A stretch of 33,445 nt of DNA from a virus (Duplodnaviria; Heunggongvirae; Uroviricota; Caudoviricetes), in the IMG/VR virus record IMGVR_UViG_3300045988_112031, positions 1 to 33,445 of that record. One strand, given 5' to 3'. Both the position numbers and the translations under genes were made by a program. Within the stretch, counting starts at the first letter, position 1, and each line of letters starts with the position of its first letter. Below are positions 6,068 through 19,190 of this stretch, one piece after another. A model generated the notes under the pieces. It had not been told where the DNA came from. It worked only from the letters and a program-made list of their open reading frames with translations, and searched no databases.

Positions 6068-7900
6068 CTACCAAAATCGGGTATAGCCAACATCGTGATT
6101 TATATCAATGCCACTGGAGCGTGTTTCCGTAACCCGCATACCTGATGGCATATTTATAAATGATACCTTGATCTCACCATCAACTTTTGGCGCGGTAGCT
6201 TTATTAATCATGAAAGGATTCGGGCCTGTGGCACCGGAGGCGTTGTTTGCCTGAGCCGGCTCCACCTCCGGATAAGGAGTGTATCCCCGTGGCGGTATTC
6301 CCGTCCCATAAGCATCATAAGCACCCGCGCCCCACTGCGCCGAGTTAATGGCATCGACCGTGTCACCGGAACTGTCGGTAAACCATTCAATAATCGGCTT
6401 CAGCTTATCCCACATATCCTGAAACCACTTAACAACCGGTCCCCAGTTATTGATCACCATCCCCAGCGGCGACCAGGCAAAAACCTTCTTCAGAAGTTCC
6501 CAGCCAGCCTCAAAATAAGGACTAATGGTTTCCCAGAGTTTCTTAAAATAAGGTCCGACAACATCCCAGTTAGTGATAATTAATCCCGCAGCCAGGGCAA
6601 TCGCCGTCGCAATCATGCCAATCGGCGTCATCGACATGATCCTGCTGACGATACTGATGGCACTGCCCACGCCCATCAATCCCAGTTTCAGAATCGCAAG
6701 ACCGGCAGCAAGCCCGACGACGCCGCGAATAACCCGGGGATTTTCATCCGCAAACTTCGTGAATTTTTCCCCTAACTCCCCCAGCCATTGCGTGATATTT
6801 TTGGCGTCACCAGAAAATGCGCCGCCAATAGCCGCAAGGCCGTTAGTTGCGGTCCCCGTCATTGCCTCCCACAGGTTGGACAGCGTACCAAGCTGTGCCT
6901 GAACACGTTTATTCAGGCTGGCCTGTTTATTCATCTTCTGCTGGATCTGATCGTAGCCATCCTTTCCTTTATCGATCAGCGCATTGACCACCTGAAGGGT
7001 TTCGGCATCATCACCAAACATTGCCTTAAGTACACCAGTTCGTTTAACGTCGGTCAGTTTTCGCAGCTTTGCCAGTTGCCTGAACATGTTATCAAGACCG
7101 CCAAAACTCCCTTTGCCATCAGTAAAATCGAGCTGTACCCCGAGTTTCTGACGGGCCATGACTTTATTGACGTCCCTGATTTTCTTAACGCTTAATCCGG
7201 ACTGGATAACTTTTCGCAGGGCGTTACCTGCCGACTCCCCGTTCATCCCCATCTGATCCATCATGACGCTGATGGGGGCAAGGCTCTGTGCAGCCTGAAG
7301 ACCGTCCTTGTTCACCATCTTCAGAACAGAACTGGTTTTAGTGAAGAAGGACAACATGTTGGTATCGTCAACGCCCAGATAAAACGCCTTCTGGATAGTG
7401 TCGAACAGCCCCATCATGTCTTCTGACGCCGTTCCGGTAGCATCCTGCATCTTTGCAGCAAACTCAGCAGCCGCTTCCGGTGTTTTTTTCAGTTGTACCG
7501 CAAGATAAGCTGTCGCTTTACCCACACCGCCAAGAATGTTTTCTGCCGGGATCCCCTGACGCACCAGCATCTGCATCATGTTCTGGAAATCAGCCGTTGT
7601 ACCGGGTAGCTGGTTACCCAGACCAATAGCCAGTTTATTGATGTCCTGAAAGCTCTTTCCGACCTCACCGTTCGCATCCATCATGGCAACTTTCAGCCCG
7701 GTGGCGGCGTTTTCCTGATCGGCATAAGATTTCAGGGAAAGCGTCAGCCCCGCTGCCAGTCCGCCACCAAGCGCCAGCCCACCCTGTGACGCTTCTTCCG
7801 CCTGGCGTTTAAATCCCCGGATTTTCTTTTGCATTTTCGACAGCGCGGGAGAAAGCCTGTCGACACCGGTGATCAACGCCTTAAGCTCAAATTCAGCCAT
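6068..7900 (-). CDS. tail tape measure protein
   Basis: 610 aa; Ala/Gly-rich helical N-terminus, hydrophobic central segments, W-rich C-terminus; preceded by the chaperone gene pair with a frameshift site. Confidence 0.85.
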   Translation of the reverse strand: MAEFELKALITGVDRLSPALSKMQKKIRGFKRQAEEASQGGLALGGGLAAGLTLSLKSYADQENAATGLKVAMMDANGEVGKSFQDINKLAIGLGNQLPGTTADFQNMMQMLVRQGIPAENILGGVGKATAYLAVQLKKTPEAAAEFAAKMQDATGTASEDMMGLFDTIQKAFYLGVDDTNMLSFFTKTSSVLKMVNKDGLQAAQSLAPISVMMDQMGMNGESAGNALRKVIQSGLSVKKIRDVNKVMARQKLGVQLDFTDGKGSFGGLDNMFRQLAKLRKLTDVKRTGVLKAMFGDDAETLQVVNALIDKGKDGYDQIQQKMNKQASLNKRVQAQLGTLSNLWEAMTGTATNGLAAIGGAFSGDAKNITQWLGELGEKFTKFADENPRVIRGVVGLAAGLAILKLGLMGVGSAISIVSRIMSMTPIGMIATAIALAAGLIITNWDVVGPYFKKLWETISPYFEAGWELLKKVFAWSPLGMVINNWGPVVKWFQDMWDKLKPIIEWFTDSSGDTVDAINSAQWGAGAYDAYGTGIPPRGYTPYPEVEPAQANNASGATGPNPFMINKATAPKVDGEIKVSFINMPSGMRVTETRSSGIDINHDVGYTRFW

Positions 7901-8075
7901 GTGTGCGTTTCTCCTGCTCTATCCTGTTTGCCTGACTGACCAGCAAGGGAATTTCACTGATCGGCATATTCAGCAATTCGAAGGGATTAATGCGCCAGTA
8001 ACTGGCGCAGTCAAAGAAGCGATCAGTGAGGTATTCAGCCGTCAGGCCTGGAGGAAAAAACCGGCCACAAGCCAC
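7893..8075 (-). CDS. tail assembly chaperone, -1 frameshift extension (C-terminal part of the fusion product)
   Basis: ORF in the -1 frame relative to 8042-8311 and overlapping its 3' end; the overlap contains a T_TTT_TTC slippery heptamer; classic arrangement upstream of a tape measure gene. Confidence 0.5.
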   Translation of the reverse strand: MACGRFFPPGLTAEYLTDRFFDCASYWRINPFELLNMPISEIPLLVSQANRIEQEKRTHG

Positions 8076-8311
8076 GCCGCTGCATTCAGGTCTGCCGGAG
8101 ACATCTGGTCGACAGAGCTTTGCGGCACTTTCGCCAGCCGCACAATGTATTTCGACACCACATGCGCCAGAAGTCTGACTGACTCATCCTGATTCATCTG
8201 GTAGGGATACCCCAGCTCGCGGACATCCTTCCCGGTGGGCTCATCAAACTCCAGTACGGAGAGTGTCTCGCCATGAGCAGTAATCGGTTTCTTTAACTCA
8301 AGCTCTTTCAT
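8042..8311 (-). CDS. tail assembly chaperone (Mu gp41-like)
   Basis: 89 aa acidic protein between tail tube and tape measure; 3' end overlaps the frameshift extension ORF. Confidence 0.6.
   Translation of the reverse strand: MKELELKKPITAHGETLSVLEFDEPTGKDVRELGYPYQMNQDESVRLLAHVVSKYIVRLAKVPQSSVDQMSPADLNAAAWLVAGFFLQA
8054..8060 (-). other. candidate -1 programmed ribosomal frameshift slippery site (T TTT TTC on minus strand)
   Basis: Plus strand gaaaaaa; in the chaperone zero frame the codons read ggT TTT TTC; a -1 slip enters the frame of ORF 7893-8075 (..GRFFPPGLTAEYL..). Coordinates approximate. Confidence 0.5.
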
Positions 8312-8667
8312 TACTGGTAATCCCCTTCTTCACCGTGGAACTCAAGATCAACCGTGCCTTCTTCGGCATTATGGTTCGCTTCGCCGTGCAGCCATGCAGA
8401 CGACAGTACATAGACCTGACCGTTCGCCAGCTCGGCAGTGATTGTCATCTCATCAGACGAGGTGATTTTGCTCACAGGAAAATTCTTCGGCACCTTGAAG
8501 GTTCCTTTAACATAAGGCGCACGGTGAGTTTCCTTGCGGTCCACTGAACCGTCCAGGCCGATGATGTCATCATTGACCGTCCTGTTCATGGGCACCTCAA
8601 TGCCGCCGGTCAGCGATAGCTGCTGACCGTCAATTTTGAAATAACAGGTTCCCCCGATACGGGCCAT
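8311..8667 (-). CDS. tail tube protein (Mu M-like)
   Basis: 118 aa immediately downstream of the sheath gene; ATG overlaps the sheath stop (TAATG). Confidence 0.7.
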   Translation of the reverse strand: MARIGGTCYFKIDGQQLSLTGGIEVPMNRTVNDDIIGLDGSVDRKETHRAPYVKGTFKVPKNFPVSKITSSDEMTITAELANGQVYVLSSAWLHGEANHNAEEGTVDLEFHGEEGDYQ

Positions 8668-15385: not shown

Positions 15386-17115
15386 AGAATTAAGAGAGCA
15401 TCGTCCGGATCAAGAGATGAGAGGAAATCGTCGGGTTCTTTGAGCATTGCCCGACCGATCGCCATAATCAGTGCAACCGCACCATCGATTTTGTTTTCCG
15501 CCTGCTCCTTGACAGGCTTCACCACATCATCGTTACCCGGAATGGTTTTGCCGACCACGTTGCCGATACACCAGGTCATGATGGGATTGCCGTCATGATG
15601 AAAGCGCCCCGATTCAATCGCCGCTTCCAGCTCTTTCATCGGATCGGACATGTTGGTGTAGTTCTGAATGATGGTGATGGGGTTCAGGTCTTCATCAGCA
15701 AGGTCATGCGACAGCCCGGTCGCCCCGAAGGGGTCGATGGGTGACTCACTGACCGGGCTGATTTTGTTCGCCGCTTTGGCCTCCTCGAGGATGTAGCGAT
15801 AATCCACCTCCGCACCAGCGGTAACAGTCAGAACGCCCATTTCCACCCATTTCTGAAAGCGTTCGGCTGTCCGGCGATCTTCATTTTTCTCGACGCTGTA
15901 CACCGTGTCATACGGTACCCAGAAACGCGGGGCCACACTGTAGTAATGCGTTTTACCGTCAATCTCGCGGGTATAAAGTCGCGCCATGCTGTTCATATCC
16001 AGCTTACGCGCCAGGTCAAAGGCCAGAATGCACGGCTGCCCCTCGAACTGCTCAAGGGTCAGTGATTTATCCTCGCAGCTCTGCCAGCTCACCAGGTTGA
16101 AATACGCCGAACGCGCCGACACCCAGATATTGAGGTGTTTTGTTTTAAAGACGTTTGCCAGACGGGCGTTATTTTTCGCACGCTGCTGCTGACTTAACAA
16201 AAATTCGCGATAAACCGACACGCCAATATTTGGATTGGCTTTTTCCAGCACCTGCGGGTCGGTCCAGTCGTCACCTTCATCAATGGTATAGATGATCCCG
16301 AACAGTTCATCGTTGGGTACCGAACCGTTGAGCATCTCGATAACTTCCCGCCGCTTGTCGTAGCACGGCCCCTCAATGTTGTACCCGGCGGTGGTGATGG
16401 CCCACATCAGTGGCTGACGTCGCGCCCCCATCCCGGTAAGCATCGTGGTATAAAGCGCATCGGTGGCGTGCTCGTGATATTCATCCACCACCGCACAGTG
16501 GGGTGATGAACCATCACCAGGGTTACCGATCAGCGGTTCAAACCGCGCACCATCCTCCGGACGGTTCATGTTTGAGGCGTTAACCTCAATCCCGAACGCT
16601 TCCGTCAGCATGGGTGTGCGTTTACACATCAGTCGTGCCGGACGAAAGACTTCCCATGCCTGTTTCTCCGTCGTGGCACCGGAATACACTTCCGCGCCGA
16701 ACTCGTTATCACAGGCAAAACAATACAGGGCAACACCGGCAGAGATTGCCGATTTGCCGTTCTTACGGGGGATTTCGGTATACACCTCCCGGAAGCGGCG
16801 CAGCCGGGAGCCTTTATTGACCCAGCCAAACGCGCAGCAGATCACAAAGAGCTGCCACGGCTCCAGCGTGATGGGCATCCGTTTGAATGCCCACTCACCC
16901 TTGGTGTGCGGCAACAGCTGAATAAATTTCGCGGCCCGTTCAGCCAAGTCCTTGTCGAAGCGGTAACGAAACGACTTACTTTTTTCCGCCATCAGGTCAT
17001 CAAGATGGCGCTGGCAGGCCTGAATCACAAACTGGCAGGCCACAATCTTTCCGCGCACGACATCACGGGCATACTGATTGGCTGCATTTACGTTGGGGTA
17101 AGATTTCCGGCTCAT
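15382..17115 (-). CDS. terL: terminase large subunit
   Basis: 577 aa; Walker A-like [11 protein letters not shown]; follows the small subunit with a 4-nt overlap. Confidence 0.9.
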
Positions 17116-17606
17116 GATTCGATAATTTTCAGAAACGGGTTAGTGGCTTTCTTCTGCCCCGCCAGGCCAATCAGACGCTGGCGGCTGCTGGGGTCGAGTC
17201 CGAGCATTGCCCCCGTGCTGCTCATCTCGGACTCCTGTTCTTTCTTGGCGGTCAGCTCCGGATTTTTGACCATACCGCCCATTGCACCGGTGATGGTGTT
17301 GCCCTGGCTGGCAATATTTTTCACGGCACGTCGCCAGAACTCATAGGCAACGCACCACCGCTCAAGCACCGCGAGGTCAGTCACGCACAGCAGGCCCTGA
17401 CCGCAGAGTTCTTTGGTTGTCAGTAGCCACATGATCGTGGCGAGAGGGAGATTTTCTTCTGCGAACCACTCCGGTGGCTCAACGCCTTTGATGGGCGTAA
17501 AAACAGGTTCATCTTTGTTCAGGGCTCGCTTGCCGGGGTTTCCGGCCAGCGCCTTGCGCGCCGTTGGCTTGGGGCGACGCCCGGAACGCCCCGCCGTTCC
17601 AGCCAT
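17112..17606 (-). CDS. terS: terminase small subunit (P27 / HK97-like family)
   Basis: Track ORF 17112-17615 (GTG start); an ATG three codons in has a well-spaced AGGAG Shine-Dalgarno; basic N-terminus; directly upstream of TerL. Confidence 0.75.
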
Positions 17607-17639
17607 ATGCGGCACTCCTGGTTAAATTTCATTTTTCGC

Positions 17640-17731: not shown

Positions 17732-18082
17732 TCACTTTAGCCGTTCACGGGCCGTCTTCGCCTTGTGGCACGGCCAGCACAGACTCTGCAGATTACTGTC
17801 GGCATCAGTGCCGCCATGTGCTTTAGGGATGATGTGGTCAACGGTTTTCGCCTCACGCACCACACCAGCACGCAGACATAACTGACACAGGCCTTTGTCA
17901 CGCTTCAATATGCGCGCGCGGATACTGTCCCACTTCGAACCGTAGCCGCGCTGATGACGGGATTGTCCAGGTTTGTATTGCTTCCAGCCTTCGCTTTTGT
18001 GGCTTTCGCAATAGCCTGACGGGTCAGTGGTGGTATGGCGGCAGCCGCGAACACGGCAGGCTTTTGGGGTTCGTTGCGGAAT
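17732..18082 (-). CDS. HNH endonuclease (terminase-associated), no canonical start codon
   Basis: Hand translation: ..PQRTPKACRVRGCRHTTTDPSGYCESHKSEGWKQYKPGQSRHQRGYGSKWDSIRARILKRDKGLCQLCLRAGVVREAKTVDHIIPKAHGGTDADSNLQSLCWPCHKAKTARERLK*. HNH motif is DHIIPKAHGG..N..LCWPCH. A perfect AGGAGG sits 6 nt before an in-frame ATT; there is no ATG/GTG upstream (first canonical start is an internal TTG giving 58 aa), so the ORF track missed it. Confidence 0.65.
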   Translation of the reverse strand: MPQRTPKACRVRGCRHTTTDPSGYCESHKSEGWKQYKPGQSRHQRGYGSKWDSIRARILKRDKGLCQLCLRAGVVREAKTVDHIIPKAHGGTDADSNLQSLCWPCHKAKTARERLK

Positions 18083-18239
18083 GTTATTCCTCCTGTGTAA
18101 TTACTGATTTCATTAATGTAATATATTGTATTGTAAGAAAAATTTGTTTTTTTACAGTGATATATTTTTATAGAAGACTATTCGCTCAAGGTGCATTAAG
18201 ATTAATCTCACCCCCACGAAGAACGTTAAGGATAAGAAG

Positions 18240-18578
18240 ATGATAAAAATGATTAACTGTACTGCTTCCAATTGTGGCGTTGGATACGTTTTTGGCAAAG
18301 GCGTTGATGCTGAGCTAATCAATAGTCACGCAAGAGCATGTAAAATCGGCTTTGTGCAAGCAGGGAATGAAAAAGAATGGTCAATACTGTTGGAAAAGTT
18401 GCTAACCAAAAAAGCTGATTTTGAGTCTTTACTGACTGTATGTGAAACTGTTAATTCAGAAGATAAAAAAAACGTCATATCCAAGTCCAATTTATTTGAA
18501 TATTTATCTCATTTTGCAAATGCTACAACTGTTTATACCTTTCTCGAGGGGTTAGTGAACTCTCTTTTAGCCAAATAA
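18240..18578 (+). CDS. moron-encoded hypothetical protein (112 aa), opposite strand to the late operon
   Basis: AT-rich cassette; AAGGA Shine-Dalgarno about 9 nt upstream; AT-rich upstream region; followed by a hairpin terminator. No family recognised. Confidence 0.55.
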   Translation: MIKMINCTASNCGVGYVFGKGVDAELINSHARACKIGFVQAGNEKEWSILLEKLLTKKADFESLLTVCETVNSEDKKNVISKSNLFEYLSHFANATTVYTFLEGLVNSLLAK

Positions 18579-18620
18579 TCACCATTTAGAATACAACTGG
18601 GTTTAAAAATAATTATAATT

Positions 18621-18676
18621 AAAAAGCTATACACCTACTTAAAAGAGTCATTATATTTGTGTATAGCTCGTTTTTC
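18621..18676. terminator. bidirectional hairpin terminator between the convergent moron and spanin genes
   Basis: 10-bp inverted repeat AGCTATACAC / GTGTATAGCT with a roughly 24-nt loop, flanked by an A-run 5' and a T-run 3' (serves both strands). Coordinates approximate. Confidence 0.5.
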
Positions 18677-18913
18677 TTCATGCCTTCTAATATGAGACTT
18701 ATCTAAATTACAACTCCCTAACGCGGACAACAGTTTTACATTCAAATCCAAACTTTCACCATACGTCAGCGGATTGGGTATAAAAGGTACTGGAGTATCA
18801 GAAGTCAGGCTGGTTGGCAGTAGTACCGCCGGTGTATTCACGTAAACTGTCCGCGTACTTCCGCAACCGGTCAGCAGCGGTAGCAGGCACAGGACGTGAA
18901 GCGCAATCATCAT
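18635..18913 (-). CDS. o-spanin (Rz1-like outer-membrane lipoprotein), overlapping Rz in the +1 frame
   Basis: Track ORF 18635-18979; the internal Met gives MMIALHVLCLLPLLTGC with an LTGC lipobox, then a Pro-rich region; begins inside Rz and runs about 160 nt past the Rz stop into the AT-rich insert. Confidence 0.5.
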   Translation of the reverse strand: MMIALHVLCLLPLLTGCGSTRTVYVNTPAVLLPTSLTSDTPVPFIPNPLTYGESLDLNVKLLSALGSCNLDKSHIRRHEEKRAIHKYNDSFK

Positions 18914-19190
18914 TCGCAATAGCCACTTTGATATCTTCCTGGGTTCTCTGTGACTCCAGTGCGATCTGCTGTTTTGCATGTTGATTCGCCTCCTGAATGA
19001 TGTTCGTTATTGCCATAGTACGCAGAACATTCTCGGTGATAGCCTCAGTAGAATCAGCTCGCTGTTCCGCAGCGTCAGCACGCTTCTGCTCCTCCAGAAA
19101 CTTTCCATAATAGTGATTCGCTGACCAGACAAGACCACCAGCAACACAAGCAATAAACGTTAAAATGAGCGCCAAATAACTTATCTTCAT
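18798..19190 (-). CDS. i-spanin (Rz-like)
   Basis: 130 aa; N-terminal TM helix then coiled-coil-like region; immediately downstream of the endolysin. Confidence 0.65.
   Translation of the reverse strand: MKISYLALILTFIACVAGGLVWSANHYYGKFLEEQKRADAAEQRADSTEAITENVLRTMAITNIIQEANQHAKQQIALESQRTQEDIKVAIANDDCASRPVPATAADRLRKYADSLREYTGGTTANQPDF

Follow-up and report, generated by a model that had tools for sequence, protein, structure and literature searches.

A lone opposite-strand gene at the lysis/packaging junction of an Escherichia coli prophage: a probable moron encoding a member of a small, uncharacterised protein family

The DNA stretch analysed here (33,445 nucleotides, IMG/VR virus record IMGVR_UViG_3300045988_112031, referred to below as the window) carries an Escherichia coli prophage of the e14/SfV/ST64B-like type, with an HK97-like head, a Mu-like contractile tail and a small terminase subunit of the P27 type, and the subject of this report is a single open reading frame (ORF 18240-18578) located between its HNH endonuclease gene and its spanin genes. 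From position 1 to approximately 28160 all credible genes lie on the minus strand, in the order tail, head, terminase, HNH, spanins, GH19 endolysin, two holins, Q and the replication/early genes, with ORF 18240-18578 on the plus strand as the sole exception; this was established from the ORF table and from the PGAP annotation of a record 96–98.5% identical to the window, and it agrees with the first-pass annotation of the sequence, in which the ORF had been described as the only plus-strand gene within roughly 28 kb of minus-strand genes. We consider that the ORF and its surroundings probably represent an independent accessory cassette encoding a real stand-alone protein that is expressed outside the late operon, a reading to which we assign a probability of about 0.6. 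The features on which this reading depends are the following, with strands given as plus or minus where one applies.

18074..18680, no strand assigned: cargo block (moron), AT-rich, without nucleotide similarity to prophages with an empty junction
18083..18239, plus: upstream non-coding region of 157 nt, divergent with the HNH gene, compared in an alignment of six E. coli copies
18151-18156, plus: TTTACA of a weaker putative alternative promoter (TTTACA, 17 nt, AAGACT), from a custom scan
18158-18166, plus: candidate extended -10 element, TGATATATT, from a custom scan, invariant in the E. coli copies, with a putative function
18228-18232, plus: Shine-Dalgarno sequence AAGGA, 7 nt before the ATG
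18240..18578, plus: coding sequence of 112 amino acids (aa), ATG at 18240 and stop codon at 18576-18578, with purifying selection and intact copies
18240..18365, plus: N-terminal domain, residues 1-42, modelled by AlphaFold2 as two 22-residue rungs of a three-sided right-handed beta-helix
18369..18575, plus: C-terminal domain, residues 44-112, modelled by AlphaFold2 as a five-helix bundle
18625-18634 / 18659-18668, no strand assigned: inverted repeat (candidate bidirectional terminator), stem of 10-11 bp and loop of 22-24 nt
18638..18679, minus: variable last 12-14 codons of lysC; the LysC proteins of six cargo variants align to about residue 100 and then diverge

Judged by its pattern of substitutions, ORF 18240-18578 is a real gene under purifying selection. 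In a comparison with a 62%-identical homologue from Enterobacter hormaechei the proportion of synonymous differences (pS) was 0.82, which is saturated, against a proportion of nonsynonymous differences (pN) of 0.26, and the mismatches were distributed over the three codon positions as 31/26/69. The chance that a frame of 112 codons would remain open at 35% guanine plus cytosine (GC) is about 2.5e-4, as calculated from base composition. The frame is intact in the six complete E. coli copies and in the three IMG/VR contigs that were fetched, length variation among the six E. coli copies being confined to the upstream non-coding region, and the identical 112-aa protein is recorded on 523 public contigs. 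A motif of the GGAG/AGGA type occurs at the place equivalent to that of AAGGA in every homologue examined. Conservation of the ORF in related prophages, on which the first-pass annotation had made its reading depend, is borne out: every fetched copy of the insert retains the frame, and a like antisense position is occupied by homologues with 25-63% identity. The AT-rich composition and the ribosome-binding site noted there were likewise found, GC across 18000-18750 amounting to 0.30-0.39 compared with approximately 0.55 on the HNH/terminase side and 0.46-0.51 in the lysis genes. That this is an independent accessory gene encoding a real protein is in our opinion highly probable.

Morons have been defined as extra units between phage genes that differ from them in GC content and possess their own promoter and terminator (PMC3594210). 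At the HNH/spanin junction an extra unit can be delimited by comparison with prophages in which the junction is empty: in BLASTN alignments with two such sites (L004 and L007 in our numbering of compared loci) similarity ends at 18073 and restarts at 18717, while with L005 it restarts at 18676, so that the non-similar block extends from 18074 to about 18680-18716, essentially the 18090-18680 given in the first-pass annotation. In L004 and L007 only 26 nt separate the start of the HNH gene from the stop codon of lysC, the gene of the outer spanin (o-spanin). Of 5426 complete E. coli genomes, 1333 have a match to the flanking sequences, which comprise the HNH, small terminase and spanin genes, and 12 of these 1333 contain the insert, at 97.7-99.7% identity. 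Each cargo variant has its own LysC tail, which travels with the cargo block; from the nucleotide break points together with this switch of the tail, a mobile block of approximately 18074-18680 can be deduced, carrying its own hairpin and its own spanin tail. Presence or absence at one junction among homologous phages and deviating base composition, both typical of morons, are thus found here, and we are strongly inclined to regard the ORF as a real gene in a mobile block of cargo.

Other occupants of the same junction were observed in related prophages. In L005 (876-1196) it contains a late-strand gene of the GrlR family (Pfam GrlR 3.9e-5, below threshold), in L006 (934-1939) a pair of plus-strand genes encoding 111 and 189 aa and belonging to no family, and in L008 (891-1400) a minus-strand gene encoding 168 aa. 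Homology between the window protein and the 111-aa plus-strand cargo of L006 was considered and rejected, none having been found. By these comparisons the HNH/Rz1 junction of e14/SfV-like prophages is a hot spot for cargo. The first-pass description of the locus as an opposite-strand, AT-rich, independently organised moron is supported both by the empty or otherwise filled junctions and by the homologues in the antisense slot. Tandem Repeats Finder called nothing in the window, Rfam gave no match in the cargo region, and a megablast search of deposited phage genomes returned little or nothing.

The antisense slot, i.e., the gene placed between a lysis cassette and an HNH or terminase gene, is kept among relatives down to 25% identity, in Enterobacter and in unassigned hosts. 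In Enterobacter-type prophages members with 55-63% identity lie between a 485-aa late-strand gene, to which they are divergent, and the spanins, with which they are convergent, and a member with 49% identity is convergent with an Rz-like gene. At 32% identity the gene is located between the 485-aa/HNH genes and the spanins, at 29% between the small terminase subunit and an Rz/GH24/holin cassette, and at 25% next to Nu1 of a phage of the lambda type, at the place of bor. In one phage with a 32%-identical homologue (L041) a late-strand gene of the Acb2_Tad1_hairpin family (L041:7446-7730, minus), a family named after the anti-defence proteins Acb2 and Tad1, was observed between the spanin and the homologue, so that anti-defence-type cargo and candidate host-benefit cargo share one interval on opposite strands. 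In Enterobacter-type phages the 485-aa gene forms a conserved late-strand pair with a 196-aa gene between the homologue and HNH (L002:5837-7866, minus; also in L032, L034, L035, L038 and L040-L042), for which the sole match was a weak one of the 485-aa protein to Glycos_transf_2 (0.0048), PADLOC returning none.

Relatives also occur away from lysis genes, the range of the family extending over prophages of E. coli, Salmonella, Enterobacter, Citrobacter and Klebsiella, conjugative plasmids of Klebsiella and integron cassettes of Vibrio. A member with 44% identity lies at the end of a prophage, beyond the tail-fibre and tailspike genes; its host is taken to be Klebsiella because of the homologues of its tandem paralogue. 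A related copy is carried by IncFIB/IncHI1B conjugative plasmids of Klebsiella, and in three contexts (the Klebsiella prophage, the Klebsiella plasmid and a metagenomic contig) a tandem paralogue that has diverged strongly comes after the gene, its C-terminal half being basic and rich in lysine. In the Vibrio harveyi group members of 145 aa constitute single-gene integron cassettes bounded by attC/VCR sites, in arrays of 15-24 near an IntI-type integrase; in L020, for example, attC sites at 7763-7924 and 8403-8564 surround the gene at 8001-8438, and L019 and L021 are alike. These relatives in Vibrio superintegrons show 22-28% identity to the window protein and have the same two domains, whereas the window copy, unlike an integron cassette, has no attC sites, is preceded by its own promoter-like region and resides in a prophage. 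One further relative was found in Idiomarina. In the phage-borne lineages the GC content of the gene (0.34-0.41) is 10-20 points lower than that of its flanks (0.49-0.56); the Vibrio copies, at about 0.40, do not differ from theirs. Phage defence has been reported among the functions encoded by integron cassettes (bioRxiv 10.1101/2024.07.02.601719).

The statement in the first-pass annotation that the product resembles nothing recognisable does not hold, since remote homology search revealed a small uncharacterised family of about 105-150 residues. A word-indexed search of 5.8 billion proteins retrieved four clusters only, from E. coli/Salmonella and, with about 60% identity, from Enterobacter/Citrobacter. 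When 1.84 billion cluster representatives were searched exhaustively with HMMER, 22 proteins were obtained at E <= 1e-3, seven of them at E <= 1e-10; nearly all of the 22 have 105-150 residues and can be aligned over their whole length. A profile search added the 145-aa Vibrio members. Four matches of the exhaustive search to long proteins were treated as noise: P0018 (in our numbering of the proteins) is an ankyrin-repeat protein, P0021 and P0024 have scattered Pfam matches that are not expected of relatives, and P0016 has none. Among the species representatives of GTDB the enterobacterial profile found nothing and the Vibrio profile one Idiomarina locus, tblastn of phages found one Vibrio prophage only, which shares the N-terminal domain (N-domain), and a literature search for WP_000594256 found nothing. 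No significant or above-threshold Pfam match was obtained for the 30 aligned family members, the window protein itself reaching only a chance-level score with MREG (0.037); PHROG, NCBIfam, PDB and BFVD gave no significant match for the window protein or the members scanned, and PADLOC-DB 2.0 (2023) gave 0 matches for six family members (including the window protein, P0007, P0022, P0029 and the paralogue).

When supplied with an alignment of 30 sequences, AlphaFold2 produced a model with a mean predicted local distance difference test score (pLDDT) of 85.9 and a predicted template modelling score (pTM) of 0.62, consisting of two domains; with four sequences only the C-terminal part was modelled. 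We have good confidence in this predicted two-domain architecture, in which the strands of the N-terminal beta-helix (2-5, 8-10, 14-18 / 24-27, 30-32, 36-40) recur with a period of 22. The earlier description of the protein as a cysteine-containing CTASNCG N-terminus on an otherwise helical product therefore requires revision: residues 1-42 are predicted to form six beta-strands, and the cysteines are not a feature of their own, C12 and C34 being replaced by Asn in Vibrio relatives in the family alignment, as is typical of the Asn/Cys ladder positions of beta-helices. An N-terminal zinc/Cys motif was likewise rejected, as close relatives keep only C7, C12 and C34, two of which change to Asn in Vibrio. 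The strongest conservation across the family lies in helices 4-5 of the C-terminal bundle (I80, S83, L89, T97 and an A-N-A turn), the top family motif being I-x-K-S-x-L-F-x-x-L-S-x-x-A-N-A-x-T-V-x-x-F-L at residues 80-102. With a maximum Kyte-Doolittle 19-residue mean of 0.93, an isoelectric point (pI) of 6.7 (mostly 4.6-6.8 in the family), no signal peptide and no transmembrane segment, the latter as stated in the first-pass annotation, the product is predicted to be soluble, near-neutral and cytoplasmic.

With right-handed parallel beta-helix proteins (PbH1/pectin-lyase; PF13229, NosD PF05048) the window protein shares the rungs, a Gly turn and stacked Asn/Cys, and its family shows weak matches to them: the Pfam Beta_helix model is matched weakly by 8 of 30 members (best E 0.002), the Klebsiella paralogue, at 23.7 bits, falls short of the cut-off of 25.9, and the Vibrio prophage protein that shares the N-domain was labelled 'Pectin_lyase-like' by its depositor. 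Rungs of approximately 22 residues and three strands with a stacked Asn/Cys ladder are present in the predicted model, whereas a Pfam gathering score and at least seven turns are not reached, there being two rungs only. Canonical beta-helix proteins have at least seven rungs and are usually secreted enzymes, adhesins or tailspikes with a substrate groove; the window protein, in contrast, would comprise two rungs fused to a helical bundle within 112 residues, is predicted to be cytoplasmic and scores below the gathering threshold. As modelled, the combination of a mini beta-helix with a five-helix bundle is unusual. Several variations on the architecture were observed. The N-domain module, with two or three rungs, also occurs with other C-termini (L024:8352-8711, L049:7346-7675, L044:~630-960 and L047:12146-12484); one such C-terminus, with the consensus IVGYNP[FY], accompanies the N-domain in the Vibrio corticovirus-like prophage protein and in P0025. 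The Vibrio subfamily (P0019, P0023 and P0027-P0036) has a basic N-terminal extension, MSNVIPFRKK, and a C-terminal extension, VDFExLLNTIMG, both of which are absent from the phage-borne proteins.

The upstream region is invariant among the six E. coli copies save for the number of repeats, the length of one poly-T and three substitutions. Counting the candidate TGATATATT, 6 of 9 phage-borne lineages have a motif of the form TGnTAnnnT at a distance of 35-82 nt before the start codon, compared with 26% of shuffled upstream regions, the nine lineages being partly related and the motif loose, and in one phage-borne lineage a perfect TGATATAAT is present; none of the Vibrio copies examined has TGnTAnnnT, three of these being integron cassettes and hence expected to be promoterless. 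This enrichment is suggestive of a promoter belonging to the gene itself. Downstream of the gene, the inverted repeat is followed by U-tracts on both strands (18670-18674, plus; 18620-18624, minus) and folds with -12.4 and -15.6 kcal/mol, corresponding to z-scores of -3.2 and -4.4 relative to shuffled sequences. The final 11 codons of lysC contain its loop and right arm, and it overlaps the spanin stop. Non-homologous hairpins occur at the equivalent place in L016 (z -6.2) and L002 (z -2.3), none being present in L023. The hairpin is a candidate bidirectional terminator that would separate two convergent units.

The repeat within the upstream region is a pentanucleotide TAATG tract (~18113-18123; (TAATG)n ~18114-18118), of which the six E. 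coli copies contain 0, 1 or 2 extra units, the window having the shortest form; one of the six shows an additional change of 1 nt in poly-T length. Read along the minus strand, the tract precedes the HNH Shine-Dalgarno sequence by approximately 20-35 nt; read along the plus strand, it precedes the candidate extended -10 element by about 40 nt. It could alter the promoter of either gene.

In bacteriophage lambda, bor is situated directly behind the Rz/Rz1 spanin genes, ahead of the packaging genes, and is oriented against the late operon. The window gene shares this slot, this orientation and the layout as a small single-gene unit, whereas its product has no sequence relation to Bor (no Lambda_Bor match), which is an outer-membrane lipoprotein with a signal peptide and a lipobox. 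A Bor-like lipoprotein or otherwise secreted protein was rejected as an identity for the product, which has no signal peptide, lipobox context, transmembrane segment or hydrophobic N-terminus, and the serum-resistance function of Bor therefore does not transfer to it. Like the morons of HK97 and HK022, e.g., HK97 gene 15, the window gene is an extra unit of deviating GC content between conserved phage genes. HK97 gp15 is a membrane protein that blocks DNA entry; it is encoded in the tail operon, unlike the window gene.

As regards expression, lambda bor is expressed in lysogens (PMC7067206; PMC3594210), and genes which lie antisense to lytic genes and have their own promoter are transcribed in lysogens (PMC7067206). 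The Salmonella prophage ST64B has the same layout as the window prophage (HNH, terminase, HK97-type head, Mu-type tail), and for its antisense accessory locus STMMW_20121 RNA sequencing revealed transcripts from a promoter of its own under nearly all conditions (PMC7067206). ST64B was rejected as a source of direct transcriptomic evidence for the window gene, its lysis-HNH interval containing the unrelated same-strand genes sb54 and sb55 and no homologue; owing to this lack of a homologue in the reference genome, transcriptomic support is by analogy only. From its orientation and sequence motifs we consider the gene fairly likely to be expressed in the lysogen.

Taken as a whole, the block 18074-18680 would have been gained horizontally at the lysis/packaging junction, the equivalent of the bor slot, as a unit consisting of an AT-rich promoter region (with the extended -10 at 18158-18166 as the most likely promoter), a Shine-Dalgarno sequence, a gene of 112 codons and a two-way hairpin. 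Given its orientation opposite to the Q-dependent late operon, the gene would be transcribed in the repressed prophage by the RNA polymerase of the host, and late transcription would run counter to it. Its product would bind a partner protein stoichiometrically, probably as a dimer; action by binding is proposed because the protein is small and soluble, possesses no catalytic motif, has a two-rung beta-helix with open ends and is sometimes encoded as a tandem pair, the diverged paralogues in three contexts suggesting that the proteins work in pairs. The relatives that occupy integron cassettes, plasmids and another prophage site indicate that the role of the protein is independent of the lysis genes and of benefit to the carrying cell, so that anti-defence, like a role that is positional or antisense alone, becomes less likely. 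The most likely form of such a stand-alone benefit would be protection, either by exclusion of other phages or by neutralisation of delivered toxins. A protective role of either kind is put forward tentatively, as less likely than not, an anti-phage role being by itself unlikely and immunity to toxins still more so.

A specific form that protection could take is that of an orphan immunity protein, neutralising a polymorphic toxin domain (CdiA-CT, Rhs, type VI secretion system effector or bacteriocin) delivered by competitors in a carrier without the toxin. The size, the cytoplasmic location, the mostly acidic pI and the absence of enzyme motifs are all typical of immunity proteins, the gene is mobile, occurring by itself in prophages, on plasmids and in integron cassettes, and the UniRef name of the 114-aa protein P0064 from Enterobacter pseudoroggenkampii is 'CdiI immunity protein domain-containing protein'. 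This CdiI label could not be reproduced: no CdiI or immunity family was found in Pfam for P0064 and four relatives, nor in NCBIfam for P0064, at E <= 10, the window protein had no CdiI/Imm family in Pfam or NCBIfam at E <= 1, and there was no fold match to a solved immunity protein. Some cognate toxin pairs would also be expected of an immunity family, and neither a toxin gene nor a toxin C-terminal fragment adjoins any member in about 15 distinct contexts, a limited sampling, so that we regard immunity to a delivered toxin as improbable. At similarly long odds stands a phage anti-defence protein that, owing to its own host-type promoter, would be made at DNA entry or induction and would inhibit or sponge an immune system in the manner of Acr, Acb2 or Tad1. 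The product is small, soluble, often acidic and probably oligomeric, it is encoded in a variable accessory slot of temperate phages, a constitutive promoter would act ahead of Q-dependent late transcription, and in L041 the Acb2_Tad1_hairpin-family gene adjoins the homologue in a shared intergenic region. That neighbour, however, is on the late strand, and the family gene is always on the opposite one; moreover, the gene is kept in Vibrio integron cassettes and on Klebsiella plasmids, where an anti-defence protein would bring no obvious gain to the carrier, no Aca-type regulator adjoins it, and it shows no similarity to any known anti-defence family.

The function may alternatively reside in the position, with convergent transcription, the RNA or the terminator insulating or tuning the lysis/packaging boundary, or the protein modulating lysis or the spanins, its sequence being secondary. 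Adjacency to the last lysis gene in six diverged lineages with differing endolysins, holins and terminases is in keeping with this, as is the fact that the cassette supplies the last 12-14 codons of the o-spanin and that its hairpin overlaps the spanin stop; functional antisense RNAs, e.g., STnc6030, are known from prophages (PMC7067206). We nevertheless hold a positional function to be very improbable, given the strong purifying selection on the amino acids, the conserved two-domain fold, the occurrence of the protein away from lysis genes (Vibrio cassettes, Klebsiella tail-fibre genes, plasmids) and the functioning of related prophages with an empty junction. A further point against it is that Q-modified polymerase would be expected to read through terminators, as is established for lambda. 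A modulator of host physiology or virulence, altering division, the envelope, stress responses or regulation instead of defending against invaders, appears unlikely, if less far-fetched. It would fit the GrlR-family regulator of type III secretion among the cargo of the same E. coli slot, the role of lambda bor as a virulence or fitness factor (PMC3594210) and the gut and clinical Enterobacteriaceae that serve as hosts, while the marine Vibrio and Idiomarina relatives argue against a role specific to animal hosts, and the protein is predicted to be cytoplasmic, has none of the character of a DNA-binding protein, being acidic to neutral with a hydrophobic conserved helix, and shows no homology to any regulator.

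A more speculative elaboration of the protective role, to which we attach very little weight, concerns the mini beta-helix itself. As the ends of a two-rung beta-helix are unsatisfied, it may dock onto other such structures, and a homodimer or a heterodimer of paralogues would then cap or co-fold with nascent beta-helical proteins of invaders and poison their assembly. Tailspikes or fibres, trimeric proteins of superinfecting phages, would be candidate targets, as would toxins that are beta-helical and delivered from outside. If true, this would make the family a new class of stand-alone protectors and constitute defence by structural mimicry of a folding intermediate, and it would explain the upkeep of the gene in prophages, near Klebsiella tailspike modules, on plasmids and in integron cassettes.

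Several observations weigh against an independently expressed accessory cassette as proposed here. A standard sigma-70 consensus scan found no plus-strand promoter upstream of the ORF, so that of the promoter-like upstream region claimed in the first-pass annotation the AT-rich composition and the extended -10 candidate stand while a consensus promoter does not, and the TGnTAnnnT statistic has the narrow base already stated. The terminator scan did not call the hairpin either, because of its long loop of 24 nt, which is atypical; the 10-bp stem with A and T runs noted earlier is confirmed, as are the U-tracts and the significant folding, the ability to terminate both transcripts being made less certain by the loop, the scan and the overlap with the end of lysC. 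A constitutive promoter would also lead to early expression upon infection, which fits anti-defence equally well. The insert is rare, at 12 of 5426 genomes, so that selection to keep it is hardly evident in E. coli. The recurrence of the slot may mirror the tolerance of lambdoid genomes to insertion and recombination in the conserved flanks instead of a function, and the searches described above gave no hint of a function through homology, fold or gene neighbourhood.

The lysis/packaging junction is a classic site at which temperate phages carry genes that change their host, and among its occupants mapped here are a regulator resembling GrlR and, in a phage related to this one, a sponge of the Acb2/Tad1 type. 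The family described is an uncharacterised and fairly widespread one of moron/cassette proteins, moron-like in its organisation and distinct from the Bor family. It is annotated in none of Pfam, PHROGs, NCBIfam and PADLOC and lacks a structural neighbour, whether solved or predicted, and yet is under purifying selection. Its distribution over prophages, plasmids and integron cassettes is what would be expected of a self-sufficient portable trait, e.g., defence or immunity, and the 339-bp gene is for this reason a cheap and well-defined candidate for phage-resistance and competition screens; without a phenotype it is one more hypothetical moron.

In the 96-98.5% identical record the prophage is integrated beside tRNA-Thr/proA. 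The genes flanking the cargo block in the window are listed below.

17112-17615, minus: small terminase subunit, in the packaging block
17732..18082, minus: HNH endonuclease gene, the left flank and first gene of the packaging block (Pfam HNH E 2.3e-16, annotation of near-identical records, translations)
18635..19190, minus: spanin pair, the right flank and last unit of the lysis cassette (PGAP annotation of near-identical records, ORF table)
18635-18979, minus: lysC (o-spanin, Rz1-like), stop codon at 18635-18637, overlapping the Rz-like gene
18798-19190, minus: Rz-like DUF2570 gene, overlapping lysC
19187-19801, minus: GH19 endolysin, in the lysis cassette
19801-20455, minus: holins, in the lysis cassette

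According to PGAP the HNH gene starts at a non-canonical ATT located 6 nt after a perfect AGGAGG (18089-18094; minus strand 18080-18094), and as a consequence of this start the ORF listing shows just a truncated ORF of 58 aa.

A second AT-rich cargo gene (GC about 0.34), encoding 213 aa, was observed on the late strand at 20616-21257 (minus) between the Q antiterminator (21730-22482) and the holins, an interval which we take to be the slot of stx in Stx phages. It is present in the IMG/VR contig L030 and not in the otherwise near-identical L029 and L031, and it matched no Pfam, PHROG or NCBIfam family, PADLOC giving a weak CasR match (0.0039). In the early region, on the minus strand, two Rfam families scored above their gathering scores, namely the C4 antisense RNA at 26991-27078 (77.8 bits) and the Hfq-binding small RNA IsrK at 27103-27179 (78.7 bits).

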